A stretch of DNA of 64,000 nt from Candidatus Komeilibacteria bacterium. Its GTDB lineage: Bacteria; Patescibacteriota; Patescibacteriia; UBA1558; 2-01-FULL-52-15. Where the stretch lies: assembly GCA_043801745.1 (NCBI GenBank), contig JAZDLR010000001.1, positions 24,374 to 88,373 on the forward strand, written 5' to 3'. The position numbers and the translations under genes are program-made. The notes below the pieces were generated by a model. It was not told where the DNA came from. It made no database searches and saw nothing but the letters and a program-made list of their open reading frames with translations. Positions 2,909 through 62,650 of this stretch are shown here, in pieces; the first letter of the stretch is position 1; each line of letters opens with the position of its first letter.

Positions 2909-2948
2909 TTGACCCCGTTAGAGGCGAAGCATCTCTAACGGGGTTGAC
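2909..2948. repeat. palindromic element, copy 1 of the TTGAC-CCCGTTAGA...TCTAACGGG-GTTGAC family
   Basis: ttgaccccgttagag-gcgaagcat-ctctaacggggttgac. The same arms recur at 17137, 20391, 21337, 23957, 28396, 40661 and 48864. Confidence 0.6.
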
Positions 2949-2972
2949 TTTTAATTGAATCTGTGCTAAAAT
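2944..2972 (+). promoter_or_regulatory. sigma70-like promoter overlapping the right arm of the palindromic element
   Basis: TTGACT at 2944-2949, a 17-nt spacer, and TAAAAT at 2967-2972. No protein ORF follows; a hairpin plus U-tract lies about 100 nt downstream. Confidence 0.35.
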
Positions 2973-4995: not shown

Positions 4996-5405
4996 CACGC
5001 CATTGCCATTGTCATTGCGAGACCCATCAGCCTCCGGTTGATGGAGCGAAGCAATCTGTAACTAATCATACCAATCCTTAGCCAAATCATCATATTCAGG
5101 ATTATCTTTTATTATCAGTAACTCTTTATTTTTTCGTGATCCACCCTTTATTTGTTTTTCTCTGGCGAGAGCACAAGCAATATCATCTGTCTCCTCATAA
5201 TAAACCAACTTCCTAATATTGTAGTGGGTCGTGAAACTAGTGGAATCAATTTTATTTTTGTGTTCATAAACTCTGCGTTCGAGATCATTAGTAACACCAA
5301 CGTAAATAACGCTATCAGTAAAATTAGTCATTAAATAGACAAAATAGGATTTAGACATATCTTTACAGATTGCTTCCCCCGCCAGAGGCGGGGTCGCAAT
5401 GACAA
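4996..5405. mobile_element. GIY-YIG mini-element bounded by inverted terminal repeats
   Basis: The left end cattgtcattgcgag-(hairpin)-agcgaagcaatctgtaa (about 5003-5060) is mirrored by the reverse complement of the right end, cattgtcattgcgac-(hairpin)-aagcaatctgtaa (about 5362-5400). The only ORF inside is a GIY-YIG gene. Confidence 0.5.
5062..5358 (-). CDS. GIY-YIG nuclease-domain protein (98 aa)
   Basis: N-terminal YFVYLMTNFTDSVIYVGVTNDLERRVYEHK is a canonical GIY-YIG motif. Confidence 0.8.
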   Translation of the reverse strand: MSKSYFVYLMTNFTDSVIYVGVTNDLERRVYEHKNKIDSTSFTTHYNIRKLVYYEETDDIACALAREKQIKGGSRKNKELLIIKDNPEYDDLAKDWYD

Positions 5406-17186: not shown

Positions 17187-17298
17187 TATTAAATACCTCA
17201 CCTGTCCTCTCCTTCAAAAGGAGAGGAACGCTATTTAAGTGGCTTGCCCCCTACTGTTCCACCATACATCACCCCTCTCCTTTTCTAAGGAGAGGGTT
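17187..17298. mobile_element. MITE-like element with terminal inverted repeats, copy 1
   Basis: cctcacctgtcctctcctt ... aaggagagggttggggtgagg, with internal hairpins ctctccttcaaaaggagag and ctctccttttctaaggagag. Copies 2 and 3 are at 35172 and 62431. Confidence 0.6.
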
Positions 17299-17325
17299 GG
17301 GGTGAGGTTGTCTAATAACATGGCG

Positions 17326-19970
17326 TTACTCTAACTTCACCCTAGCATCAGCCAACTTCTTCTTTACTTCGTCCACCACCTTTCGCGGCGCACGGGAAGT
17401 AAAATTACTATCGGCTAATTTGGCTTCTAAATCGGCAATATATTTTTTCAATTCGGTCTGGTCAACGCTTTTCTCAACTCCCTGAATATCGGTAATTAAT
17501 CTAAACCAACTACCTTTTAGTTCCAGCTTTGATTCCACCTGATCTACCAGCTTCACGCGGCCTAGTGTTTCAATAAATGGCTTCAACGAATCGATCTTTG
17601 GCTGACCAATATACTGTACCTGACTAATCGTAGCCGCTGCTACTTTATTTTCCGCGCGGGCATTACGTAATACGGTCACAATTTCCTGCAATTTCTTCAT
17701 CTCTTCCGCTGCCCCGGTTACCGAGCCCCGATTACCGGTTACTGACGCCTCCTCCGGCCACTGCTCAATCATCAACAACTTATCCTTATTCACCTGTCCC
17801 CAAATTACTTCAGTCACAAACGGAATAAACGGATGCCAGAGCTTAAGTAGATTCTGCAACAAATATAATAATAAGCCATCGCGGTCTTTTTTGGTCTCGG
17901 GTTTAATCCGATTCTCAATTTTCGCAAGCTCGAGATACCAATCCGCGAACTTAGACCAGGTAAAATCGTAAAGTTTTTCCGCGGCCAGAGAAAACATTTT
18001 TTCGTTTAATAAATTGGTTACTTCCGTCACTAACCCGGTATACTCGTACCAAATCCAATAATCTATGTCACCGGATAAAACCGGCAGTTCTTCGATTAAT
18101 TTCGGCTGTTCAACACTGGTTAAGATAAAGCGGGAAATATTCCACAGCTTATTAATAAAGTTGCGGTAGCCCTGAATCTTTTCCGTGTAAAATTTAGAGT
18201 CACTGCCAGGACTAATACCGGCAATTAAACTCAAACGCAATGAATCCGCGCCATACCGACGGACAATATCCATCGGATCAATGCCATTACCTAAGGACTT
18301 AGAAAACTTTTTGCCTTCCGTATCGCGCAACATACCGTGGAAATAAACTTCCCGAAACGGAATTTGATCCAGAGCATACGTGGACATCATAATCATGCGT
18401 GCCATCCAGAAAAACAGCAGTTCATAACCCATCTGCATCCAGGCTGTCGGATGATACTGCTTCAAATCAGGAGTTTCTTTTGGCCAGCCGAGAGTGCTGA
18501 AAGTCCAAGTGCCGGAGGAAAACCAAGTATCAAGAGTATCTTCATCTTGCTGCCAGCCATCGCCAATTGGCGGTGTTACTCCGACGTACATTTCGGAGGA
18601 GTTAGTAGAAAGAAGCAAGGAGGAAGGGTTATCTTCCCTAGCTTCTTTCTCCTTTCTCCTGTCCTATACCAAACCGGAATCCTGTGGCCCCACCAAATCT
18701 GCCGGCTAATACACCAATCATGTAAATTATCTATCCACTGTAAATAACTTTTGCTAAAGCGCTCGGGCTGAATCGCAATTATATTCTCTTTCTTGCCACC
18801 GTGCCCAGTAGTTACTGCTTCACGCATCAGATCTTTCAGACTTTTTCCTTTTTTAGGAATCTGCTTATTGACATCAACAAACCACTGCAGTTTAATCTGC
18901 GGTTCCACTGGCACGTTGCCGCGGTCACTGATGGCCACGCGGTGAAGATAATCTTTTTTCACGTCATAAACTAAACCTTTTTTCTCAAGTTTCTGAACAA
19001 TCTTAGCTCGGGCTTCGCTAATGCTTAAACCCGCGAATTCTCTGGCAATAGGCAGCATTTTTCCGTCAAAGCCAATAATCTGCACTTTATCTAATTTATG
19101 CCGTTCAGCAATATCAAAGTCAACGCTGTCATGCCACGGCGTAATGGTCATGGCGCCAGTGCCAAATTCCGGATCAATAACTTTATCCTTAATAACCGTG
19201 GCCTTCACCGGACCGTTAATCCATTCGCAGTCAAAAGTATCACCATGCTTATATTTCCAATAACGCTTATCATCCGGATGCACCACGACATATTTATCGC
19301 CCAATTTAGTTTCCGGCCGGGCCGTAGTAATGATAAACGGCCCAAAGTGAAAATAATATAAGGGAATATTTTCTTCCTGCCAAACCAGTTCATCATCAGA
19401 AACCGTGGTCGCTAGTTTCGGATCCCAGTTAACGATCCGGTGTCCACGGTAAATCAAGTTATCATTATACATCCGGATAAACATCTCATTTACTGCCGCT
19501 GATCTCTGCTCATCAAAAGTATAAGCCAACCGTGACCAATCACAGCTGGTACCCATAATTCTAATTTGCTTTAATATCGTTTCCCGTGATTTATCCGCGT
19601 AATCTTTGATTAGCTGTAATAATTTCTCGCGACCCAATTCTGTCCGTGGATCTTTATATTTACCCGAAGCAATTAATTCTTTCTCTACCCGTGCCTGCGT
19701 GGCTACGGCCGCGTGATCAGTACCGGGCAGTAACAAAGTTTTCTTGCCCAGCATGCGTTGATAGCGGATCTGTAAATCCATCAGAGCATTTTCCATCGCA
19801 TGGCCCAAATGTAAAACTCCGGTCACATTTGGCGGCGGCATCATAATGGCATAGGGCTCACCTAAACTCGTGGCTAATTTATCCGGATTAAAATATCCTG
19901 AACTTTCCCAGATATGATAAATATCTGATTCGTAATTCGCTGGGTTATATATTTTTGGTAATTCTTTCAT
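17326..19970 (-). CDS. valS: valine--tRNA ligase, split by a frameshift into two ORFs (18576..19970 and 17326..18618)
   Basis: The N-terminal ORF carries PPPNVTGVLHLGHA (HIGH) and WCISRQIWWGHRIPVWY. The C-terminal ORF carries DTLDTWFSSG and KFSKSLGN (KMSKS). The frames change within a purine-rich/pyrimidine-rich segment of about 74 nt between the IPVWY and EMYVGV codons. Confidence 0.85.
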
Positions 19971-19988
19971 AGTATTATGTTTGTCCTT

Positions 19989-20053
19989 CCCCTCCTTACT
20001 AAGGAGGGGTAAGGCCCGCCCGCCTGCGAAGCGCAGCGAGTCGGGCGGGGGTG
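19989..20053. repeat. GC-rich nested-hairpin repeat (CCCCTCCTTACTAAGGAGGGG family), copy 1
   Basis: cccctccttactaaggagggg followed by gcccgcccgcc...cgggcgggggtgg. Related copies lie at 54996-55062 and 58600-58685. Confidence 0.5.
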
Positions 20054-21127: not shown

Positions 21128-21336
21128 GGTTAGCCTCCTTCGTCGGCGTACCTCGTATCCCGCGCTTTGCAGGACGTAGGCGTACCGCTCTCTGGGGTAA
21201 TCTATATGGAAGCAGTGAAAACTGCCTATTTACTAGCTATGTTGTAATGTGCGTTGAATAACATAATAATAGCATATACATCAAAATCTGTCAATGGTTC
21301 GGCAAGCTCACCACATAAAAAAATGGCTATTATTAG

Positions 21337-21365
21337 CCACGTTAGAGAGCTGGTCTCTAACGGGG
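21337..21365. repeat. palindromic element, copy 4
   Basis: ccacgttagagag-ctgg-tctctaacgggg, embedded in a larger palindrome atggcta...tagccat. Confidence 0.5.
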
Positions 21366-21396
21366 TAGCCATATACTGCTCAAAATATCCCTAATA

Positions 21397-23798: not shown

Positions 23799-23903
23799 AG
23801 CAATTCCCTCCGTTTGGTGGTTAGAGAAACGTTATGAAAAGTACGGAACAAAGGTGAATACTATTATTCTCCGGAAAAAAAGTCAATGTGATACAATTGG
23901 TCA

Positions 23904-24452
23904 ATGAGCATAATCATTAAACGCAGCCGCCGCAAAACTCTGCAATTATCCGTTCACCTTGTTAGAAATGGGACTTCTAACGGGGTTAATCCCGCGATCC
24001 AAATAATAGTCCGCGCTCCGCTGACACTGCCGCTGTCACGCATTCAATTATTTGTCCAACAAAAACAAGCCTGGATAAACCGGGCCATTCACAGGCAGAG
24101 CAATCGCCTCCCCTTACCGCATAGCCCGCAGGATTATAAAAAAAACAAATCTCTGGCTAGAAAAATTATCTTGGAACGTCTGAATCAATTAAATGACACC
24201 TATCAGTTACATTGGAAACGGTTGACGATCCGCAACTCCCGCACCCGCTGGGGTAGCTGTTCGCGGCAGGGAAACTTGAATTTCAATTATCGGATTATAT
24301 ATTTGCCACCAGAACTACAGGATTACGTCATTGTGCACGAACTTTGTCATTTGCAGGAGCTAAATCATGGAAAAAAATTCTGGCAGTTGGTGACCAGGGT
24401 CATCCCCAACTTTTCTGTAACACGAAAACAACTTCGACAATACAGTCTATAA
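23904..24452 (+). CDS. DUF45 / COG1451 (YgjP-like) zinc-dependent metallohydrolase carrying an in-frame palindromic-element insertion
   Basis: IIKRSRRKTLQLSV...IIVRAP at the N-terminus, and the zinc site VIVHELCHLQELNHGKKFW (HExxH). Codons for LVRNGTSNGVN are contributed by the palindromic element at 23957-23991. Confidence 0.7.
   Translation: MSIIIKRSRRKTLQLSVHLVRNGTSNGVNPAIQIIVRAPLTLPLSRIQLFVQQKQAWINRAIHRQSNRLPLPHSPQDYKKNKSLARKIILERLNQLNDTYQLHWKRLTIRNSRTRWGSCSRQGNLNFNYRIIYLPPELQDYVIVHELCHLQELNHGKKFWQLVTRVIPNFSVTRKQLRQYSL
23957..23991. repeat. palindromic element, copy 5, inserted in frame within the DUF45 gene
   Basis: ccttgttagaaatgggacttctaacggggttaatc has a degenerate left arm. It lengthens the SV...IIVRAP spacer by about 10-11 codons relative to the family norm. 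Confidence 0.55.
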
Positions 24453-28395: not shown

Positions 28396-28434
28396 GTCAA
28401 CCCCATTAGAGATAACTCTTTAATGGGGTCAAGA
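28396..28434. repeat. palindromic element, copy 6
   Basis: gtcaaccccattagag-ataact-ctttaatggggtcaagagcc. Confidence 0.5.
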
Positions 28435-28588: not shown

Positions 28589-28825
28589 ATGGGTCTACCC
28601 AGCAAGAAACGTTCGAGTTCATCTAAGCGCCGTCGAGCTGCTCATTTTGCTTTATCTAATCCGGCGCGCAGCAAATGCGCCCACTGCGGTCATGACACCA
28701 GGCCACATTTTGCCTGCAAGAACTGCGGTTTTTACCGCGGCCGTGAAATAGTCAATACTCTTAAAAAATCTAAATCTTTAACCCGGTCAGGCAAAGCAGC
28801 TAAAGCTACGACCTCCGAAAAATAG
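28589..28825 (+). CDS. rpmF: 50S ribosomal protein L32 with a C-terminal basic extension
   Basis: MGLPSKKRSSSSKRRRAAHFAL...CAHCGHDTRPHFACKNCGFYRGREIV is the L32 zinc-ribbon signature. Confidence 0.8.
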   Translation: MGLPSKKRSSSSKRRRAAHFALSNPARSKCAHCGHDTRPHFACKNCGFYRGREIVNTLKKSKSLTRSGKAAKATTSEK

Positions 28826-32561: not shown

Positions 32562-35171
32562 ATGTATTTACAAAAACTGGAAATCCAAGGCTTCAAATCT
32601 TTTGCTCATCAAATAGAGTTGGTCTTTAACCGTGAATTAACAGCCATTGTCGGACCCAATGGCTCAGGCAAATCTAACATTGCTGATTCCGTGCGCTGGG
32701 TCTTGGGCGAACAGAGCGTTAAATTATTACGCGGAAAAAAATCTGATGACGTGATTTTTTCCGGTTCCGACAAAAAGGCCCGGCTAAGTTTCGCTCAAGT
32801 TGATCTGCATCTGGATAATAGCGATCATCAGGCGCCGGTTGATTATGATCAGATAGTCATCAGCCGCAAAATCTACCGTGACGGCGAAAGTGAATATTTA
32901 TTAAATAATACTAAGGTTCGCTTATCCGATATCCAAATCTTATTGGCCAAGTCACACTTTGGCCAGAAAACCTACAGCGTCATTGGTCAGGGCACAGTTG
33001 ATCATTTATTAACTCTGTCTTCAGCCGAACGTAAAGATTTTTTTGACGAAGCTACCGGCGTTAAACAGTATCAGATCAAAAAAGACCAATCAGTAAATAA
33101 ATTACTGGCCACGCATGAAAATTTAATCCAAGCGGAAAATATTTTAACGGAAATTACTCCCCGTCTGCGTTCCTTATCGCGGCAAGTGCGCCGGTTGGAA
33201 TTAAAAGAAGAGAATGAAAAAAAACTTCAGGATCTGCAAACGCAATATTACAGTTTCTTATCCCAAACCTTACAAACGGAGCTAAATAAAGTTCAAGGCG
33301 AAAAGAAACAACAGGAAAGCAAAGTGGCGAAAGTTAAAACCGAACTGGATAAAGTCGGCAGTCAATTAGAACAGCAATCAGTCGGGCCTTCAAGAAATCA
33401 GGAATTTGATTTACTGCAGAAAAAGTTAACTACCCTGCAGGATGAATACAATCTCTTAAGCCGCGAGAAAACCCGTCTGGAAGGCAGCCGCGATCTGGAT
33501 CTGATGAAATCCGGCAAACAGGATCTGGTCTGGCTACAGGCACGGTTAGATACCGTTAACAACAAGGTCAGCAAACTGCAAATTGAGGTTGAGGAACATA
33601 GCCGCACACTGACAACTAAGAAAAAGCTAACGCAGGATTTGGGTCAGAAAATCTCGGCTCTGGATCTGCAGATTAAACAAATAGAAAAGCAGATGCGGGA
33701 AAATCTGGAGCCGCATGCTGACTGGGATAAATTAGCGGCAGCCGCGTCTAAACTGGAATCTGATCAGGTGGAACTGGACGAACTGATTCAATTAGCCGCC
33801 GATGACTCCGGCTGGCAGCAGGTCAAGAAAACTTGGTTGAATTTTGGTCAGAGTTTAAAGACCTTTTGGCAAACTTTCCGTAAGCCCTCGCCAGCTAATC
33901 AAACTAAACTCTTAGAAGAGTTTCAGAAATTATTAGCTGAGAAAGACGTTCTCCAGCGGCAGTTACAAACGGAAAAGCTGGCCGAACAAAGTAGTGAGCA
34001 ACAGGTTGTCTCACTTAAACAGCAGTTGCAGGAATTAGAACAGGAAAAAATCAAAATCAACGAGCAAATGACTGACGCCGGTGGCCGCTCTTCGACTGTC
34101 AATGCCAGCCAGCTGCAGGAATTAGCTTCTAAGCTAACTAAACAGGCGCAAGCTATTGCCGAGATCACCAAACAAATTGGCAACTTCAACCAATTAGAAG
34201 AGGGCAAGAAGCAACAAATACTGGAGTGGCAGAAAAGCTTCAGCCGTGCGCAGTATGATTACAATTTGCTGGGTCAGGATTTGAATAAATATAATATTGA
34301 GCTAGCTAAATTAGAAACCCGCGAAGAAGATCTGCAACGGGAAATTAGAGAAGAGTTTCCGCAGTTTCAGGCGACTAAGGTTAGTAGCCTGAATTCTGAA
34401 GAAGTCCGCGATAAAATAAATGATCTAAAAAAGCAATTGGCTGTCATCGGCAGTATTGATGAAGCTACGATGTCGGAATATACCGAAGTGAAAGAACGGC
34501 ACACATTTTTAACGCAACAAACGGCTGATCTGAAACAGGCTACCGCCAGTTTACAGAAATTAATTAAAGAACTGGACGAAACAATTGCCAAACAGTTTAA
34601 TGACAATTTCGTCCATATTAATACTTACTTTAATAAATACTTTAAAAAACTCTTTAGTGGCGGTACGGCGAAATTAATCTTAGAAATGAAACAGCCGGAG
34701 GAAGAGGATCTTGGGACTGGGGACTCGGAACCCGTCGGTACATCCTCAACAACAAGCCCCAAGTCCCAAGTCCCAAGTCCCGATAAAAGTCGAGAGTTAA
34801 AGTTCCAATCCTTAGAATATGGTATTGAAATTCAAGCCACGCCTCCGGGTAAAAGATTATCCGGCATTGCCATGCTTTCCGGCGGTGAGAAAGCTTTAAC
34901 TGCTATTGCTCTGATCTCCGCCATTATTGCTAACAACCCCTCGCCCTTTGTCGTGCTGGATGAAGTTGACGCCGCTCTGGATGAAGCTAATTCCGTGCGC
35001 TTCGCCGAAATCATTGATGAGCTTTCGGATAAAACTCAATTCATTGCTATAACGCATAACCGCGCTACCATGCAACAGGCCAAAATACTTTATGGTGTGA
35101 CTATGGGTGATGATGGTATTTCACGCCTATTGTCAGTTAACTTTAGTGAGGCTGATAAGATAGCCGCCTAA
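32562..35171 (+). CDS. smc: SMC-family chromosome segregation ATPase (short form, 869 aa)
   Basis: N-terminal LEIQGFKSFA...VGPNGSGKSNIADSVRWVLGEQS, long coiled coils, and C-terminal LSGGEKALTAIALI...VLDEVDAALD. Confidence 0.85.
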   Translation: MYLQKLEIQGFKSFAHQIELVFNRELTAIVGPNGSGKSNIADSVRWVLGEQSVKLLRGKKSDDVIFSGSDKKARLSFAQVDLHLDNSDHQAPVDYDQIVISRKIYRDGESEYLLNNTKVRLSDIQILLAKSHFGQKTYSVIGQGTVDHLLTLSSAERKDFFDEATGVKQYQIKKDQSVNKLLATHENLIQAENILTEITPRLRSLSRQVRRLELKEENEKKLQDLQTQYYSFLSQTLQTELNKVQGEKKQQESKVAKVKTELDKVGSQLEQQSVGPSRNQEFDLLQKKLTTLQDEYNLLSREKTRLEGSRDLDLMKSGKQDLVWLQARLDTVNNKVSKLQIEVEEHSRTLTTKKKLTQDLGQKISALDLQIKQIEKQMRENLEPHADWDKLAAAASKLESDQVELDELIQLAADDSGWQQVKKTWLNFGQSLKTFWQTFRKPSPANQTKLLEEFQKLLAEKDVLQRQLQTEKLAEQSSEQQVVSLKQQLQELEQEKIKINEQMTDAGGRSSTVNASQLQELASKLTKQAQAIAEITKQIGNFNQLEEGKKQQILEWQKSFSRAQYDYNLLGQDLNKYNIELAKLETREEDLQREIREEFPQFQATKVSSLNSEEVRDKINDLKKQLAVIGSIDEATMSEYTEVKERHTFLTQQTADLKQATASLQKLIKELDETIAKQFNDNFVHINTYFNKYFKKLFSGGTAKLILEMKQPEEEDLGTGDSEPVGTSSTTSPKSQVPSPDKSRELKFQSLEYGIEIQATPPGKRLSGIAMLSGGEKALTAIALISAIIANNPSPFVVLDEVDAALDEANSVRFAEIIDELSDKTQFIAITHNRATMQQAKILYGVTMGDDGISRLLSVNFSEADKIAA

Positions 35172-35260
35172 CCTCACCCCAACCCTCTCCTTAGAAAAGG
35201 AGAGGGAGGATGCACAGTGGGATAGTGTTCCTCTCCTTTTGAAGGAGAGGGCAGGTGAGG
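35172..35260. mobile_element. MITE-like element, copy 2 (inverted orientation), abutting the smc stop codon
   Basis: cctcaccccaaccctctccttagaaaaggagagg...ctctccttttgaaggagagggcaggtgagg. Confidence 0.55.
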
Positions 35261-35399
35261 TATTCAAAAAAACATATGAATTGACATAATCCCTCTCCTA
35301 TAGTAATATCCTCCCATCAATATCTTCTTGATACTTGATTCCTACTCACAGCGCGAAATAGCTAATCAGTAGGACAGAACAACTAAGTACCATAAGCTT

Positions 35400-40660: not shown

Positions 40661-40701
40661 CTTGTCCCGTTAGAAGCAACGCTTCTAACGGGACTTGACA
40701 A
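40661..40701. repeat. palindromic element, copy 7 (perfect 13-bp arms)
   Basis: ttgtcccgttagaag-caacg-cttctaacgggacttgacaag. Confidence 0.55.
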
Positions 40702-41162
40702 GAGGCCCAACCTTGTCTAAACTGATGCTACTTGCTCTTTGTAGCCCCTTTATCCATCAACATCCATTTCATTTCCTTGAGGCTTGAAACCTCATACCGG
40801 AGTAGCTGCCGGTAACAATCTAATGAGTTGAGAACAAACAGTAGTATCTGTAGCTCGGGTATTTCTGTTTTTTCTTAACGCCGAATCCGTGGCCAAAGGA
40901 TAAATGGAACCTAAATAAATTTCTGACGTTCCGATTCGAAGACCGCGAATGGCGTTAACCCGCCGTATCGAGCTCAGCTCGAGAAGGAGGGTTGTCCGAC
41001 ATTAAACGAACAAGAGAAGAGCACCTTGACAACTGAATCAACAGCAACACCATTAGATAGTGAATAACAATTGAAATGTGACGGTTAATGTCAATTCGTT
41101 GCTGCGTTCTGCGCAGTAACATAACATGAATTTTTTTCGAGCCTACAAGCTCACTCTAACAA

Positions 41163-42775
<1,613 letters not shown>

Positions 42776-48788: not shown

Positions 48789-48961
48789 TTAATAATAAGC
48801 CTTAACCATCTTAGATGAACTATTTTAAGGGCTTGACCCTGTTTCAAGCATCTGTAAAAAACTTCTAATGGGGTTGACATCGGTATTGACAAAATAAGCC
48901 AGATGTGATAAAAGGATTAATCGATTCGCTATATGCGAATCTTTTTTATTAGAGAAAGCCT

Positions 48962-54995: not shown

Positions 54996-55062
54996 AAGGA
55001 GGGTCTACCACCCCTTTCCCCTCCTTGCCAAGGAGGGGAGGTCGACAGACCGGGGTGGTATC
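54996..55062. repeat. GC-rich nested-hairpin repeat (CCACCCC...CCCCTCCTTGCCAAGGAGGGG...GGGGTGG), copy 2
   Basis: ggtctaccacccctttcccctccttgccaaggaggggaggtcgacagaccggggtggta, with outer arms gagggtctac/gtagaccctc. Confidence 0.5.
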
Positions 55063-56272: not shown

Positions 56273-58243
56273 TTATTTTTTTCGACCCCGCAAAACCGCT
56301 ATCTGATCCCGCAGGCGAGCCGCTGTTTCAAATTCCAAATTAGCCGCGGCTAGTTGCATTTGCTGTTCCAGAGAATGTAATAAAAAATCCTTTTCTCCAA
56401 CTGATAAACCTTTAATTTCATCTTTAAATTCAGCTTTTACATCCAAACCCTTCAAAGAGGCGGCTTTAATTGCTTTAATAATTGTCTGCGGCGTTATGTG
56501 GTTCGCCTTGTTATATATTCTCTGCTTATCGCGGCGGCGGTTGGTTTCATCTATAGCCTGTTTCATTGATCTGGTTACTGTATCGGCATACATAATGACT
56601 TTACCTTCTACGTGGCGGGCCGCACGGCCAATGATCTGGATCATGGCTGTGGCACTACGTAAAAATCCTTCTTTATCCGCGTCTAAAATAATTACCAAAG
56701 ACACTTCCGGCAAATCTAATCCTTCGCGCAACAGATTAATGCCGACCAAAACATCATATTTACCTTGCCGCAGATCGCGTAAAATATCTATCCGGTCCAA
56801 AGTATCCACTTCCGAATGCAGATATTGCGCTTTGATATTTTTTTCCAGCAACATTTCGCTAATATCTTCGGCTAATACTTTAGTTATAGTTGTTACCAAA
56901 ACGCGCTGACCATGGCTGACCCTGGCGTTTATTTCTTTAATCACGTCCTCCACCTGACCGGTTGTTCCGCGTACTTCAATTTCCGGATCTAATAAACCGG
57001 TTGGACGCACAACTTGTTCTACTACTTGTTTAGACAAACCCAGCTCATACTGATCCGGCGTGGCTGACATATAAACCGTCTGTCCGGTCCTCTGCCGGAA
57101 CTCATCATAATTCAACGGCCGGTTATCCAAAGCGCTGGGCAAACGCCAGCCGTAATCTATCAACATTTTCTTTCGCGCCTGATCACCGTTATACATGCCG
57201 CGGATCTGCGGCAGAGTCATATGTGACTCATCAACGACCAGAAAAAAATCATCAGGAAAATAACCTAGTAGTGTCTCCGGCGGTTCTCCGGCCTGCCGGC
57301 CGGCCAAATGCCGCGAATAATTCTCAATGCCGTTGCAATAACCAACTGACCGGATCATTTCCAGATCATACTTGGTCCTTTCTTCAATGCGCTGAGCTTC
57401 AATCAGCTTATTGTGCTGCTTAAAATATTGAATCCGTTCTATTAGCTCGGTTTCAATATTGGGCAGGGCTTTCTTAATATTAACTTCCGGCGCTAAGAAA
57501 TGTTTAGCCGGAAAGATGCTTAGATCTTTCGGTGTTTCTAAAATATCATGAGTTAAATAATGAACTTTTTCAATTTTATCTAACTTGTCGCCATCAAAAC
57601 GCAGACGGTAGTAATGTTCATCTTCGGCGCTAGGAAATATTTCCATATTTTCACCCTTAACCGTGAAATTACCGCGCGTTAAAACCGTGTCATTGCGGTT
57701 ATATTGTAAAAAATTCAGTTGATTTAATAATTTATAGCGGGCATAAGTCTTGCCAATCTCTAATGTAATGCGCACCTGACTATAATCTTCCGGCGAACCT
57801 AATCCGTAAATACACGATACAGACGCGACAATTAAAACATCGCGCCGAGTGAGTAAGGCCTGCGTGGCTGCATGCCGCAAGCGGTCAATTTCTTCATTGA
57901 TCTGCGTTTCCTTGTCTATGTGCGTGTCAGACGCCGGTATATAAGCCTCGGGCTGATAATAATCATAGTAGGAAACAAAATAATGCACGGCATTATTGGG
58001 AAAGAAATCCTGAAACTCCGAAGCCAGCTGCGCGGCCAAAGTTTTATTATGTGAAATAACTAAAGTCGGTTTGTTAATTTTGGCCACAACATTGGCAATA
58101 GTAAAGGTCTTACCCGAACCAGTTACTCCCAAAAGAGTTTGATCGCGGTAGCCCTTTTTCAAACCAGTAGTCAATTGTAAAATCGCACTCGGCTGATCCC
58201 CAGTGGGTTTGAATTTGGCCTTAAGACTAAACTTATCTGCCAT
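56273..58243 (-). CDS. uvrB: excinuclease ABC subunit B
   Basis: GDQPSAI...GVTGSGKTFTIANV and the C-terminal UVR domain QMQLAAANLEFETAARLRDQI. Length 656 aa. Confidence 0.95.
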   Translation of the reverse strand: MADKFSLKAKFKPTGDQPSAILQLTTGLKKGYRDQTLLGVTGSGKTFTIANVVAKINKPTLVISHNKTLAAQLASEFQDFFPNNAVHYFVSYYDYYQPEAYIPASDTHIDKETQINEEIDRLRHAATQALLTRRDVLIVASVSCIYGLGSPEDYSQVRITLEIGKTYARYKLLNQLNFLQYNRNDTVLTRGNFTVKGENMEIFPSAEDEHYYRLRFDGDKLDKIEKVHYLTHDILETPKDLSIFPAKHFLAPEVNIKKALPNIETELIERIQYFKQHNKLIEAQRIEERTKYDLEMIRSVGYCNGIENYSRHLAGRQAGEPPETLLGYFPDDFFLVVDESHMTLPQIRGMYNGDQARKKMLIDYGWRLPSALDNRPLNYDEFRQRTGQTVYMSATPDQYELGLSKQVVEQVVRPTGLLDPEIEVRGTTGQVEDVIKEINARVSHGQRVLVTTITKVLAEDISEMLLEKNIKAQYLHSEVDTLDRIDILRDLRQGKYDVLVGINLLREGLDLPEVSLVIILDADKEGFLRSATAMIQIIGRAARHVEGKVIMYADTVTRSMKQAIDETNRRRDKQRIYNKANHITPQTIIKAIKAASLKGLDVKAEFKDEIKGLSVGEKDFLLHSLEQQMQLAAANLEFETAARLRDQIAVLRGRKK

Positions 58244-58598
58244 TATTTAAATGCCGTTTAATAATTTCAATCACTTCTTCCGTATTTTCATAAACTTCAC
58301 CATTACTGAAACGAATTACTTTAATGCCGTATAACTCAATATACTTTTGCCGCTCATTATCCATTTCCTCTGCTCCATCTACTAAATGACTTTCGCCGTC
58401 AATCTCAATTGCCAGCTTAACCTCTGGACAATAAAAATCCACCACATACTTTCCAATTCCATGCTGTCGTCTAAATTTATATCCGTTCAACTGACTACCC
58501 TTGAGTCGTAACCACAGCATTATCTCTGCCGGCGGCAGTGAGCTCCGTAAATCTTTACGTAAAGATTTGAATCGGTGTCGATTATATAATTTTGTCAT
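58233..58598 (-). CDS. DUF559 / Vsr-like endonuclease-domain protein
   Basis: KYVVDFYCPEVKLAIEIDGESH is the DUF559 (PD-(D/E)xK-like) signature. Length 121 aa, with the start overlapping the uvrB stop. Confidence 0.65.
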   Translation of the reverse strand: MTKLYNRHRFKSLRKDLRSSLPPAEIMLWLRLKGSQLNGYKFRRQHGIGKYVVDFYCPEVKLAIEIDGESHLVDGAEEMDNERQKYIELYGIKVIRFSNGEVYENTEEVIEIIKRHLNNGR

Positions 58599-58599
58599 A

Positions 58600-58685
58600 A
58601 CAGGGCATACAATTTTTGACCACCCCGGCCTATTGCCCCCCCTCCTTACTAAGGGGGGGGGAGGGGTGGTATGCCCTGTTATTAC
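58600..58685. repeat. GC-rich nested-hairpin repeat, copy 3
   Basis: aacagggcatac...ccaccccggcctattgccccccctccttactaagggggggggaggggtggtatgccctgtt is a three-level nested palindrome. Confidence 0.5.
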
Positions 58686-62297: not shown

Positions 62298-62430
62298 TAA
62301 AATGACCAAATCGGACTTAGAAAAAATCATAAACTACATAGTTGGCCAAGGACTGGCGGAAACGAAAGGTCTGGCAGCCGGGGTGAGAATATACGATTAA
62401 CTGATTATTGGAAATTGATTATTTGCATTA

Positions 62431-62542
62431 CCTCACCTGTCCTCTCCTTCAAAAGGAGAGGAACGCTATTTATAAAGCTAGTCGCTCTACTCAACCTCCG
62501 CGCATCCTCCCTCTCCTTTTCAAGGAGAGGGTTGGGGTGAGG
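62431..62542. mobile_element. MITE-like element, copy 3 (same orientation as copy 1)
   Basis: The first 45 nt and the last about 35 nt are near-identical to the copy at 17187-17298. Extended terminal inverted repeat ttacctcacctgtcctctcctt / aaggagagggttggggtgaggtaa. Confidence 0.6.
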
Positions 62543-62650
62543 TAATCTACAAATAAATTTGTCTGACTAACACCGTTGTTAGCTTTTTTTGTAAAATTAA
62601 TAACCCATCGACAAATTATTGCGGGGCTTTCAATACAATATAGTTTTAAC

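Follow-up and report, generated by a model that had tools for sequence, protein, structure and literature searches.

We found that a tiny mobile element of the non-autonomous kind, a 29-nt palindrome with a duplicated 4-nt target, was inserted long ago, with a probability that we put at roughly 85%, into the gene for a YgjP-like/DUF45 metallohydrolase of Candidatus Komeilibacteria. The gene lies in a stretch of 64,000 nucleotides that was analysed as a whole and is called the window in what follows. The position and sequence of the insertion, its comparison with orthologous loci and the behaviour of related copies in other genomes are described below, and the coordinates of the features are collected in Table 1.

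Boundaries of the insertion

A sequence-only reading of this DNA had placed one copy of a palindromic repeat, copy 5, in the N-terminal region of the DUF45 reading frame. The 35-mer ccttgttagaaatgggacttctaacggggttaatc was indeed found at 23957-23991, where the in-frame translation is ...LQLSV-HLVRNGTSNGV-NPAIQIIVRAP.... In an alignment with 24 homologues at 43-59% identity, the window protein alone had an insertion of 11 residues, located between TLQLS and VNPAIQIIVRAP. The spacing from anchor to anchor was 14 residues in 106 of the 120 homologues retrieved and 25 in the window protein, which agrees with the earlier estimate of a loop about 10-11 residues longer than usual.

The three closest homologues are proteins of 172 aa at 52-55% identity, and two of them were traced to contigs (P0003 to L001-L004 and P0002 to L005-L007). 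Their loci are positional orthologues of the window locus and share with it the order TsaE, TsaD, small ORFs, YgjP, HSP20 and VanW; an SDR gene is also among the matching neighbours. Alignment of the orthologous DNA gave a clean gap of 33 columns at the insertion site. The orthologous sites read ...TCA G-TCAA-T TCT (L001, L004) and ...ACC G-TCAC-G CCC (L005, L006), and the window site reads G-TTCA-core-TTAA-T, with the 29-nt core at 23957-23985. The gain in the DUF45 gene is 33 nt or 11 codons, made up of the 29-nt core and one extra copy of the 4-nt target, and it is exactly onto these two parts that the extra loop maps when the homologues are aligned. The earlier proposal that the longer loop corresponds to the element was thus right in substance and wrong in its arithmetic, which had added new flanking sequence to an element of 35 nt.

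The two target copies at this site, TTCA and TTAA, are now one base apart. Without the element, the junction is predicted to read TCCGTTAATCCC; the predicted peptide across the insert is SVHLVRNGTSNGVNPAIQ, and the added segment corresponds to residues 18-28 of the protein. The core in the gene is degenerate, with two C>T changes in its left arm. The consensus and the empty site, the latter reconstructed from distant relatives only (the nearest orthologues being 52-55% identical), together predict an original form, from which the copy differs by four substitutions within the 12 nt at its left end and by a single one at its right. Judged by these substitutions, the DUF45 copy is an old and partly decayed insertion.

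Table 1. Coordinates of the DUF45 gene, its insertion and the related copies in the window.
Feature	Position	Strand	Evidence
Conserved GTCAAT-N-TGATACAAT 5' of the DUF45 ATG	23882..23897	+	columns invariant in three orthologous lineages
YgjP-like/DUF45 zinc metallohydrolase gene, host of the insertion	23904..24452	+	182-aa ORF, PF01863 match
Left copy of the duplicated 4-nt target, TTCA (probable ancestral form TCAA/TTAA)	23953..23956		empty sites in syntenic orthologues
29-nt palindromic core CCTTGTTAGAAATGGGACTTCTAACGGGG, read as (H)LVRNGTSNG	23957..23985		repeat match and profile match
Right copy of the duplicated 4-nt target, TTAA	23986..23989		29 + 4 = 33 nt, the orthologue gap
HELCH zinc-binding motif, codons 145-149	24336..24350	+	downstream of the insert, same frame
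Copy 1, intergenic, 31-nt core, flanks TTGA/TTGA	2909..2947		profile; hairpin -23.6 kcal/mol
Copy 2, intergenic, flanks TCAA/TTAA	17146..17182		profile
Copy 3, intergenic, flanks TCAA/TCAA	20392..20430		profile; hairpin -19.5 kcal/mol, z=-7
Copy 4, variant arms, intergenic, upstream of tsaE	21334..21367		pattern and profile
Copy 6, intergenic, between VanW-like gene and rpmF	28397..28432		profile
Copy 8, variant GTCCCGTTAGAAGC arms, 5' of promoter-like site and 16S rRNA gene	40666..40692		pattern and profile
Half copy, right arm only, TCTAATGGGGTTGAC	48859..48877		profile E=0.04, weak

Copies of the palindrome in the window

The pattern GTTAGA-N3-14-TCTAAC occurred five times in the window as against 0.03 expected from shuffles, and repeat finding with inspection gave a consensus of approximately GTCAA-CCCCGTTAGA-loop-TCTAACGGGG-TCAAG. 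An nhmmer profile was made solely from 75 copies of other genomes and is thus independent of the window. This profile recovered seven window sites at E<=1.3e-4 plus the half copy, and it placed the DUF45 site at 23961-23989 with E=6.8e-6. The repeat family that had been proposed from the window is therefore real. Within this genome the loops of the short copies vary. A 50-nt stretch in the gene for ribosomal protein bL32 (28754-28790) matched at 70% and had suggested that another copy lies in frame there, but it was rejected: it is non-palindromic, it was missed by the family profile, and a match of this kind was estimated to lie within chance for a self-comparison of 64 kb.

The profile match bears directly on whether the DUF45 loop is an ordinary lineage-specific expansion that resembles the repeat by accident. 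Six distant homologues among the 120 do have a loop that is 12 residues longer at the same turn, and loops of the same length in orthologues that lack the repeat were what the sequence-only reading had named as speaking for coincidence. The loops of these six are unrelated in sequence to the insert and their DNA is not palindromic, so the match of the DUF45 insert to the repeat is not made coincidental by them. The insert matches a profile drawn from foreign genomes, the gap is exactly 33 nt and is flanked by a near-repeat of the single target of the orthologues, and the encoded peptide is nearly identical to element peptides of unrelated proteins, such as VCPVRNGISNGVD in L041. We regard an accidental resemblance as hardly credible. 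From the gap in syntenic orthologues and the significant profile match we conclude that a palindromic element of this family was inserted into the DUF45 gene at exactly the boundaries given, which upholds the earlier suggestion that a repeat had transposed into a coding sequence without destroying it.

The intergenic window copies form predicted hairpins of -13 to -25 kcal/mol with z between -2.7 and -7. The DUF45 hairpin, at -14.3 kcal/mol and z=-1.8, is the weakest of the family, and its stem on the mRNA strand is held by two G-U pairs that are owed to the two C>T changes. A hairpin that looks decayed rather than maintained argues against a reading in which the copy, instead of being selfish DNA that the gene tolerates, would be retained for internal termination or attenuation, for protein binding or as part of a promoter. 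The appeal of such a role comes from intergenic copies, some of which coincide with promoter-like sites through a TTGAC flank. The right flank of copy 1, TTGACT, also serves as the -35 box of the promoter-like TTGACT-17-TAAAAT at 2944, and the promoter-like TTGACA-17-TAAACT at 40695 lies directly 3' of copy 8, before the 16S rRNA gene; copy 1 is also the only intergenic window copy that scored as terminator-like. At the DUF45 copy, however, the GC-rich stem with a T-run that defines an intrinsic terminator was not found, and a scan of 23800-24100 gave no terminator-like site, no T-run and no sense-strand promoter-like match inside the gene. A regulatory function of this copy is very unlikely.

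The host protein

The DUF45 reading frame matched PF01863 (YgjP-like metallopeptidase, formerly DUF45) with E=4e-42 and 144.9 bits, above the gathering cut-off of 26, and its product contains the HExxH motif of the family. All 21 invariant family columns are kept in the alignment with the 24 homologues, including H145, E146 and H149. An identical protein is recorded at NCBI on a 112-kb contig of a Candidatus Komeilibacteria MAG (CPR/Patescibacteria), and a database of 5.8 billion clusters contained no relative above 55% identity. The ATG of the gene lies 6 nt downstream of the conserved GTCAAT-N-TGATACAAT, which is probably an extended -10 promoter.

An AlphaFold2 model calculated from a 25-sequence alignment had a mean pLDDT of 95.2. 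Its sole low-confidence block comprised residues 21-30 (mean pLDDT 65), which sit between strands 14-20 and 31-39, and from this placement the insert would lengthen the turn of the N-terminal beta-hairpin. The same turn accommodates length changes elsewhere in the family, as in the unrelated 12-residue expansion of the six distant homologues. Since the N-terminal strand encoded 5' of the insert is conserved in homologues, no downstream start codon would give a complete protein, and the insert must then be read through. The frame stays open through HELCH, as had been stated before. We infer that the insert is translated and that the protein probably retains its enzyme activity despite it; the extra residues are presumably tolerated.

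A family of 29-nt palindromes across phyla

One genome per GTDB species was searched with CCCCRTTAGA-N5-11-TYTAAYGGGG, and the element, CCCCRTTAGA-loop-TYTAAYGGGG, was found at 118 loci at least. Among 80 matches listed, at least 22 belonged to the CPR, 17 to Omnitrophota and 10 to Nitrospirota and relatives. Further hosts among the matches listed were Planctomycetota, Cloacimonadota, Bacteroidota, Deltaproteobacteria and others, together with one Aenigmatarchaeota contig that carries three copies. One of the copies, L029, belongs to the genome of Candidatus Velamenicoccus archaeovorus LiM (NZ_CP019384.1). The element was also present in 25 IMG/VR viral contigs.

A rough estimate of the chance matches to this pattern in 596 Gb is about 30. 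The extension of the stem and the covariation of the arms give the matches, at least 118 in number, properties that chance would not give. The stem was longer than the specified 10 bp in 93% of the matches listed and longer by at least 2 bp in 73%. Arm position 11 was paired in 64 of 67 aligned 29-nt copies (AU 31, GC 17, UA 15), and at positions 11-13 of the arms 95% of cells were paired. The covariation score of the arms across the 67 copies was 0.206 as compared with 0.091 in shuffles, and none of 500 shuffles scored as high. Covariation at positions 11-13 is not something that simple recognition of inverted repeats requires.

Core length was sharply peaked at 29 nt (63 of the 118 matches listed), within a range of 26-31 nt for the short form, which consists of two inverted repeats of 10-13 nt around a loop of 3-9 nt. 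Identical loops, for example TAGTAAACA and its complement, occur in different genomes. In addition, 12 longer forms (47-184 nt) share the same termini and have mutually unrelated interiors; most of them (47-114 nt) have perfect inverted repeats of 12-16 nt, and the 4-nt flanks are identical in 7 of the 12.

Rfam gave no family at any copy in the window or at 18 other loci, at gathering or at permissive thresholds, and BLAST of the consensus against 7.3 Gb of plasmid and 2.3 Gb of phage records returned only chance matches of 18-21 nt. Literal literature searches for CCCCGTTAGA and TCTAACGGGG retrieved unrelated primers and sequences only, and keyword searches found papers on RPEs, REPs and MITEs and no description of a 29-nt element. 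The family appears to be undescribed so far.

Target duplication and mobility

Among the matches listed, the 4 nt on the two sides of the core were identical in 40 of 117 copies, while shuffling of the partners gave a mean of 5.5 and a maximum of 12. The alternative of palindromic flanks accounted for only 11 of the 117 copies among these matches. The consensus of the flanks is G-YNNR-core-YNNR-C, rich in T and A; flanks seen include TAAA, TTTA, TCAA, TTGA, CTAA and CGAG, and TTAA itself is rare. Between copies of one locus the flanks vary and yet match in pairs (TTTA/TTTA and CAAA/CAAA in L118, TGGG/TGGG in L072), which identifies them as duplicated target and not as part of the element.

To compare close relatives, the 90%-identity clusters to which proteins with genic copies belong were examined. 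In three clusters, NadE, RnfD and a Clp ATPase, the members were 90-99% identical and were found with or without exactly the 11 residues of the element. The NadE proteins of Thermodesulfovibrionales have 554 or 543 aa, are 96-99% identical and differ solely by the bracketed residues in PPIPP[LAPLENISLTG]LEKGG. The RnfD proteins have 358 or 347 aa (VFGA[LNPVRKNIFNG]AKETKR), and the Clp ATPases of Liptonbacteria have 848 or 837 aa (DALAAS[PVRGDASNGAS]GKER). In the DNA, the empty NadE site reads CCCCT-TTAG-AAAAGG and the filled site CCCCT-TTAG-[29 nt]-TTAG-AAAAGG, with a perfect duplication of TTAG; for RnfD, where CAAA is the duplicated target, the empty site is G-CAAA-GGAG and the filled site C-TAAA-[29 nt]-CAAA-GGAG. 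As read from these aligned alleles, NadE and RnfD establish insertion with a 4-bp duplication and a gain of 33 nt, the same arithmetic as at DUF45.

The polymorphic genes also bear on a reading in which the 29-nt palindromes are immobile and were left behind when longer elements were almost completely deleted, by slippage across the hairpin. All three show either a clean empty site or the 29-nt form, and the long form was not seen. The sharp mode at 29 nt, where such deletions would leave a spread, and the identical loops across genomes, which indicate copying of the short form, likewise tell against immobile remnants. Deletion would nevertheless account for longer forms that share termini and 4-nt flanks around unrelated interiors and for short-form loops that differ within one genome, and it would sidestep the synapsis of a 29-bp substrate. 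On balance we hold this reading to be improbable.

Coding compatibility of genic copies

About 20 of the 118 copies listed lie inside long ORFs (220-893 aa), and 18 of these 20 have a 29-nt core. Their hosts include Clp, SMC, a CCA-adding/HD enzyme, a CDC48-like AAA ATPase, NadE, ArsA, a GH57-like protein, RnfD, DnaX, MiaB, PolX, FtsW/RodA and others. In the 29-nt core the TAG of the left arm and the TAA of the right arm fall in one frame, so that each strand keeps two open frames out of three. Genic copies accordingly encode a stereotyped peptide, xPVRxxxSNGVx or xPLExxxLTGxx. The DUF45 peptide HLVRNGTSNGV is of the first type and is nearly the same as VCPVRNGISNGVD in L041, a CDC48-like protein in which exactly 11 aa, VCPVRNGISNG, appear as an insertion when it is aligned with the D2 domain of VAT.

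Long open frames hold 12 of 49 cores of 29 nt and 2 of 40 cores of other lengths. As a control for detection bias, the core and 4 nt were excised in silico, and this restored a broken gene in one case only. Lengths that shift the frame are thus essentially absent from genes, as would be expected if genic copies are translated and selected. When the MiaB and NadE copies were compared with solved structures they fell in variable linkers that are 10-13 residues longer, which is consistent with insertion and not exact; the NadE case is settled by the cluster comparison and not by the structures. On the combined evidence of alleles, flanks and reading frames, the family is mobile, duplicates its target, and shows a frame-preserving bias in its genic copies.

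Comparison with known elements

The in-frame insertion of a palindrome is a known kind of event, seen with RPEs, intragenic REPs and some MITEs. RPEs (Ogata et al. 2000) are described in PMC10969869 as elements of about 100-150 bp that occur only in Rickettsia, in frame in housekeeping genes and compatible with the protein fold. Like them, the present element is a selfish palindrome that sits in frame in unrelated genes (about 20 genic copies among the matches listed) and adds a conserved peptide; unlike them, it has a core of 29 nt and a clear 4-bp target duplication, and it occurs in many phyla (CPR, Omnitrophota, Nitrospirota and others). GTAG/CGTC REPs are stem-loops of 20-40 bp, mostly intergenic with some in ORFs, and are thought to be miniature mobile elements (PMC3733652, Di Nocera et al. 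2013); one of their ends bears a GTAG or CGTC tag, and RAYT tyrosine transposases are associated with them (PMC3733652). The present element shares with REPs the palindromic stem-loop in the 20-40 bp range and the many copies (seven full and one half in the 64-kb window), and differs in having no tag and in having variable 4-nt flanks that match pairwise and so represent a true duplication. It is accordingly set apart from RPEs by size and host, and from REPs by the lack of a terminal tag and the presence of a duplication.

Prokaryotic MITEs are usually 50-800 bp long, with minima of 36-53 bp in a 2024 census (PMC11602168), and occasional in-frame genic copies are noted in a review (PMC10969869). 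The likeness to MITEs extends to terminal inverted repeats, target-site duplication, lack of coding capacity, multiple copies, presence/absence polymorphism between close relatives, and in-frame genic copies. The differences are the modal core of 29 nt, which falls below the 50-800 bp size range, the arms that covary past the conserved 10 nt, and the parent IS, for which none was found. No autonomous IS with the same inverted repeats was detected in the window, near the 118 copies listed, between distant half-sites, or in annotated plasmids and phages. We therefore describe the element as minimal and MITE-like, consisting of inverted repeats only; it duplicates 4 bp of target, is distributed across phyla and has a unit length that preserves the reading frame.

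The piggyBac/IS1380 superfamily has a 4-bp TTAA-like target duplication (with variants TTAG, TAAA, CTAA, TCAA and TATG) and inverted repeats that begin with CCC (PMC10813416). The 4-bp duplication, the target variants just listed and inverted repeats starting CCC are found here too. On the other hand, few of the flanks are TTAA, every piggyBac-derived MITE is much longer than the present element, and no transposase of this or any other superfamily was identified in the window or beside the copies listed. The TNNA-like 4-bp target and the CCC termini thus resemble those of piggyBac/IS1380, a resemblance that may serve as a lead and does not amount to membership.

Proposed mode of mobilization

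The element consists of two terminal inverted repeats of 10-13 nt (consensus CCCCGTTAGA) and a short free loop. In the mechanism that we propose, a transposase supplied in trans would make a staggered cut of 4 bp at the site of insertion, so that the 4-nt target (YNNR in general, TCAA-like at DUF45) is duplicated on both sides. The gain of 29 + 4 = 33 nt adds 11 codons and keeps the frame. In the frame used at DUF45 the element reads x-P-V-R-x-x-x-S-N-G-V, now HLVRNGTSNGV; the extra residues would extend the turn between strands 14-20 and 31-39, with HExxH remaining in frame. A 4-bp duplication that varies between copies and matches pairwise favours an enzyme of the staggered-cut, DDE type acting in trans, and the target duplication thus suggests that a DDE enzyme moves the element.

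A 29-bp duplex is very short for the synapsis of two ends by a classical DDE transposase. This shortness and the covariation of the arms are unlike a simple DDE system, and for that reason both the deletion-remnant reading weighed above and a REP-like, hairpin-based one were kept under consideration. In the latter, a single-stranded hairpin would be moved by a tyrosine (HUH) transposase of the IS200/IS605 type, such as RAYT, and the flanks would be cleavage or target sites. In its size of 26-31 nt and its hairpin shape the element is like a typical REP, REPs that lie inside genes and contribute amino acids have been documented (PMC3733652), and arms that covary past the conserved 10 nt, like the very stable intergenic hairpins, would fit recognition of a folded strand. 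Yet neither end carries the GTAG/CGTC tag, and the variable flanks match pairwise, with exactly one copy in the empty site of NadE. Insertion of the IS200/IS605 type is not known to leave a target duplication, whereas the flanks here are duplicated. Quasipalindrome template switching can also yield covariation in a short palindrome, so that the pairing of the arms is open to a second explanation. We judge a REP-like hairpin mechanism unlikely.

Genes that could supply the enzyme were sought near the copies. Pfam searches of the about 50 window ORFs identified no DDE or Y1 transposase, RAYT and IS200-IS605 Y1 genes included, and the only nuclease-like matches were a small GIY-YIG protein and a DUF559/Vsr-like nuclease. 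No gene recurred beside the copies listed: 761 ORFs located up to 2.5 kb from the 118 copies were compared all-vs-all by BLAST, and no cluster was represented in more than 4 loci. Searches for half-sites 0.3-5 kb apart and for degenerate partners with matching flanks did not yield an autonomous parent.

Discussion

Taken by itself the DUF45 locus is a modest case of a known phenomenon, and the family of 29-nt palindromes is the more interesting result. The insertion explains the odd loop of a conserved hydrolase and cautions annotators against taking these 11 residues, which are selfish DNA, for a functional motif. Pipelines that search for MITEs have a minimum size above 29 nt, and counts of such elements are therefore probably too low.

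In uncultured lineages, essential genes (NadE, RnfD, Clp) are polymorphic for the 33-nt unit. The unit thereby provides a natural experiment in the tolerance of proteins to insertion and a potential strain-level marker for metagenomes, and in aligned proteins from the CPR, Omnitrophota and Nitrospirota it gives rise to conserved motifs that are spurious.

The identity of an enzyme able to move so small a substrate would be interesting mechanistically. More tentatively, and as a possibility that we regard as doubtful, the 33-nt architecture (29 + 4 nt, stops confined to one frame, hydrophilic turn-forming peptides and compatibility with coding) may be an adaptation by which a minimal transposon survives in gene-dense, streamlined genomes. 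On this view the family would supply essential proteins across phyla with 11-residue loops. The enzyme that moves it would act on inverted repeats that nearly abut, perhaps folded into a hairpin, and might excise the element seamlessly, as in piggyBac.

Promoter-like sequences at the main element and at DUF45

In two intergenic copies of the main element, the palindrome that the DUF45 gene carries in frame, the TTGAC flank coincided with the -35 box of a promoter-like site (see the table). Since TCAA/TTGA flanks were present on nearly all copies of the Komeilibacteria genome, this arrangement suggests that the main element was inserted into, or retained at, -35-like TTGAC sites. Upstream of the DUF45 start itself, the DNA alignment showed the motif GTCAAT-N-TGATACAAT to be invariant in three orthologous lineages, and a -10-like TACAAT was followed by the ATG 6 nt downstream. 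The invariant motif and the 6-nt spacing of TACAAT to the ATG suggest a putative extended -10 promoter, from which the DUF45 mRNA would be leaderless or nearly so.

Coordinates of features in the window and at loci of other genomes (L-numbers).
Feature	Location	Strand	Details
Promoter-like TTGACA-17-TAAACT	window 40695-40723		~430 nt upstream of 16S rRNA gene; 10/12 matches
Promoter-like TTGACT-17-TAAAAT	window 2944-2972		10/12 matches
Invariant motif upstream of DUF45 start	window 23882-23903		
Second palindromic family	window 17189-17314, 19988-20014, 35170-35272, 55000-55043, 58636-58677, 62419-62549		
ValRS, two overlapping ORFs	window 17326-19970	(-)	
GIY-YIG protein	window 5062-5358	(-)	98 aa; Pfam
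DUF559/Vsr-like endonuclease	window 58233-58598	(-)	121 aa; Pfam
16S rRNA match	window 41157-42773		
rpmF/bL32 ORF	window 28589-28825		
Doudnabacteria ArsA gene	L049 4564-6603		indel at codons 139-150
70-nt composite, two copies	L011 4198-4267, 6974-7043		

Other repeats, insertions and loop expansions

Repeat finding in the window also returned a second palindromic family, unrelated to the main element, of the form ACCTCACC..CCTCTCCTT-N4-AAGGAGAGG..GGTGAGGT, with arms of up to 57 nt and 88% arm complementarity. The same search matched window positions 28754-28790 to copy 3 of the main element at 70%, within a bL32 gene whose product has a C-terminal tail of ~20 residues beyond the Pfam domain (domain end at residue 56 of 78). 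An old in-frame copy at this position was unsupported: the segment was not palindromic and gave no match to the family profile, which was built only from main-element copies in other genomes.

Two ArsA proteins that are 99% identical were separated by a 12-residue indel, PARLASQGEAGG, coded in the Doudnabacteria gene by a 36-nt palindrome (CCCGCCCGCCTTGCTTCGCAAGGCGAAGCGGGCGGG; -29.7 kcal/mol) distinct from the main element. This palindrome represents a second family of hairpins that lies in frame within a CPR gene and is polymorphic there. Six distant DUF45 homologues (P0043, P0047, P0051, P0060, P0099 and P0108) shared an expansion of 12 residues, two of them cysteines, at the beta-hairpin turn where the window protein has its insertion; the expansion is unrelated to that insertion and reads, for example, PCFENESGCEIN in P0108; its coding DNA, searched for a palindrome at codons 26-53 of L154, was not palindromic.

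The valyl-tRNA synthetase (ValRS) is split in the window, whereas its orthologue in L001, a locus of a genome with a syntenic DUF45 orthologue, is one protein of 869 aa. A change of frame occurs between ...HRIPVWYR and EMYVGV..., near window 18600-18670, where the junction stretch measures 68 nt as compared with 51 nt in L001 and contains an imperfect palindrome, GGAGAAAGGAGAAAGAAGC...GCTTCTTTCT, outside the CCCCGTTAGA family. The interruption could be a true frameshift or an indel of the assembly, or ValRS could be a split gene. Insertions are reported in CPR rRNA genes, and the ~84-nt excess of the 16S rRNA match (1617 nt against a 1533-position model) may be one of this kind. Two small stand-alone nucleases, a GIY-YIG protein and a DUF559/Vsr-like endonuclease, were the only nuclease-like ORFs in the window without a clear role.

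Composites and sub-families of the main element

At L011, a 26-nt core was nested in a 44-nt element of identical termini, giving a 70-nt composite. Its two copies lie in direct orientation, 2776 nt apart, and flank a Clp-like gene on both sides. Main-element loops recurred identically in copies of different genomes and phyla, both as TAGTAAACA with its complement TGTTTACTA and as TAGCAAGCA / TGCTCGCTA (L016, L066, L087, L089, L103 and other loci). Because identical loops occur across genomes and phyla, their sequences point to sub-families of the main element that would have spread by horizontal transfer rather than having independent origins.
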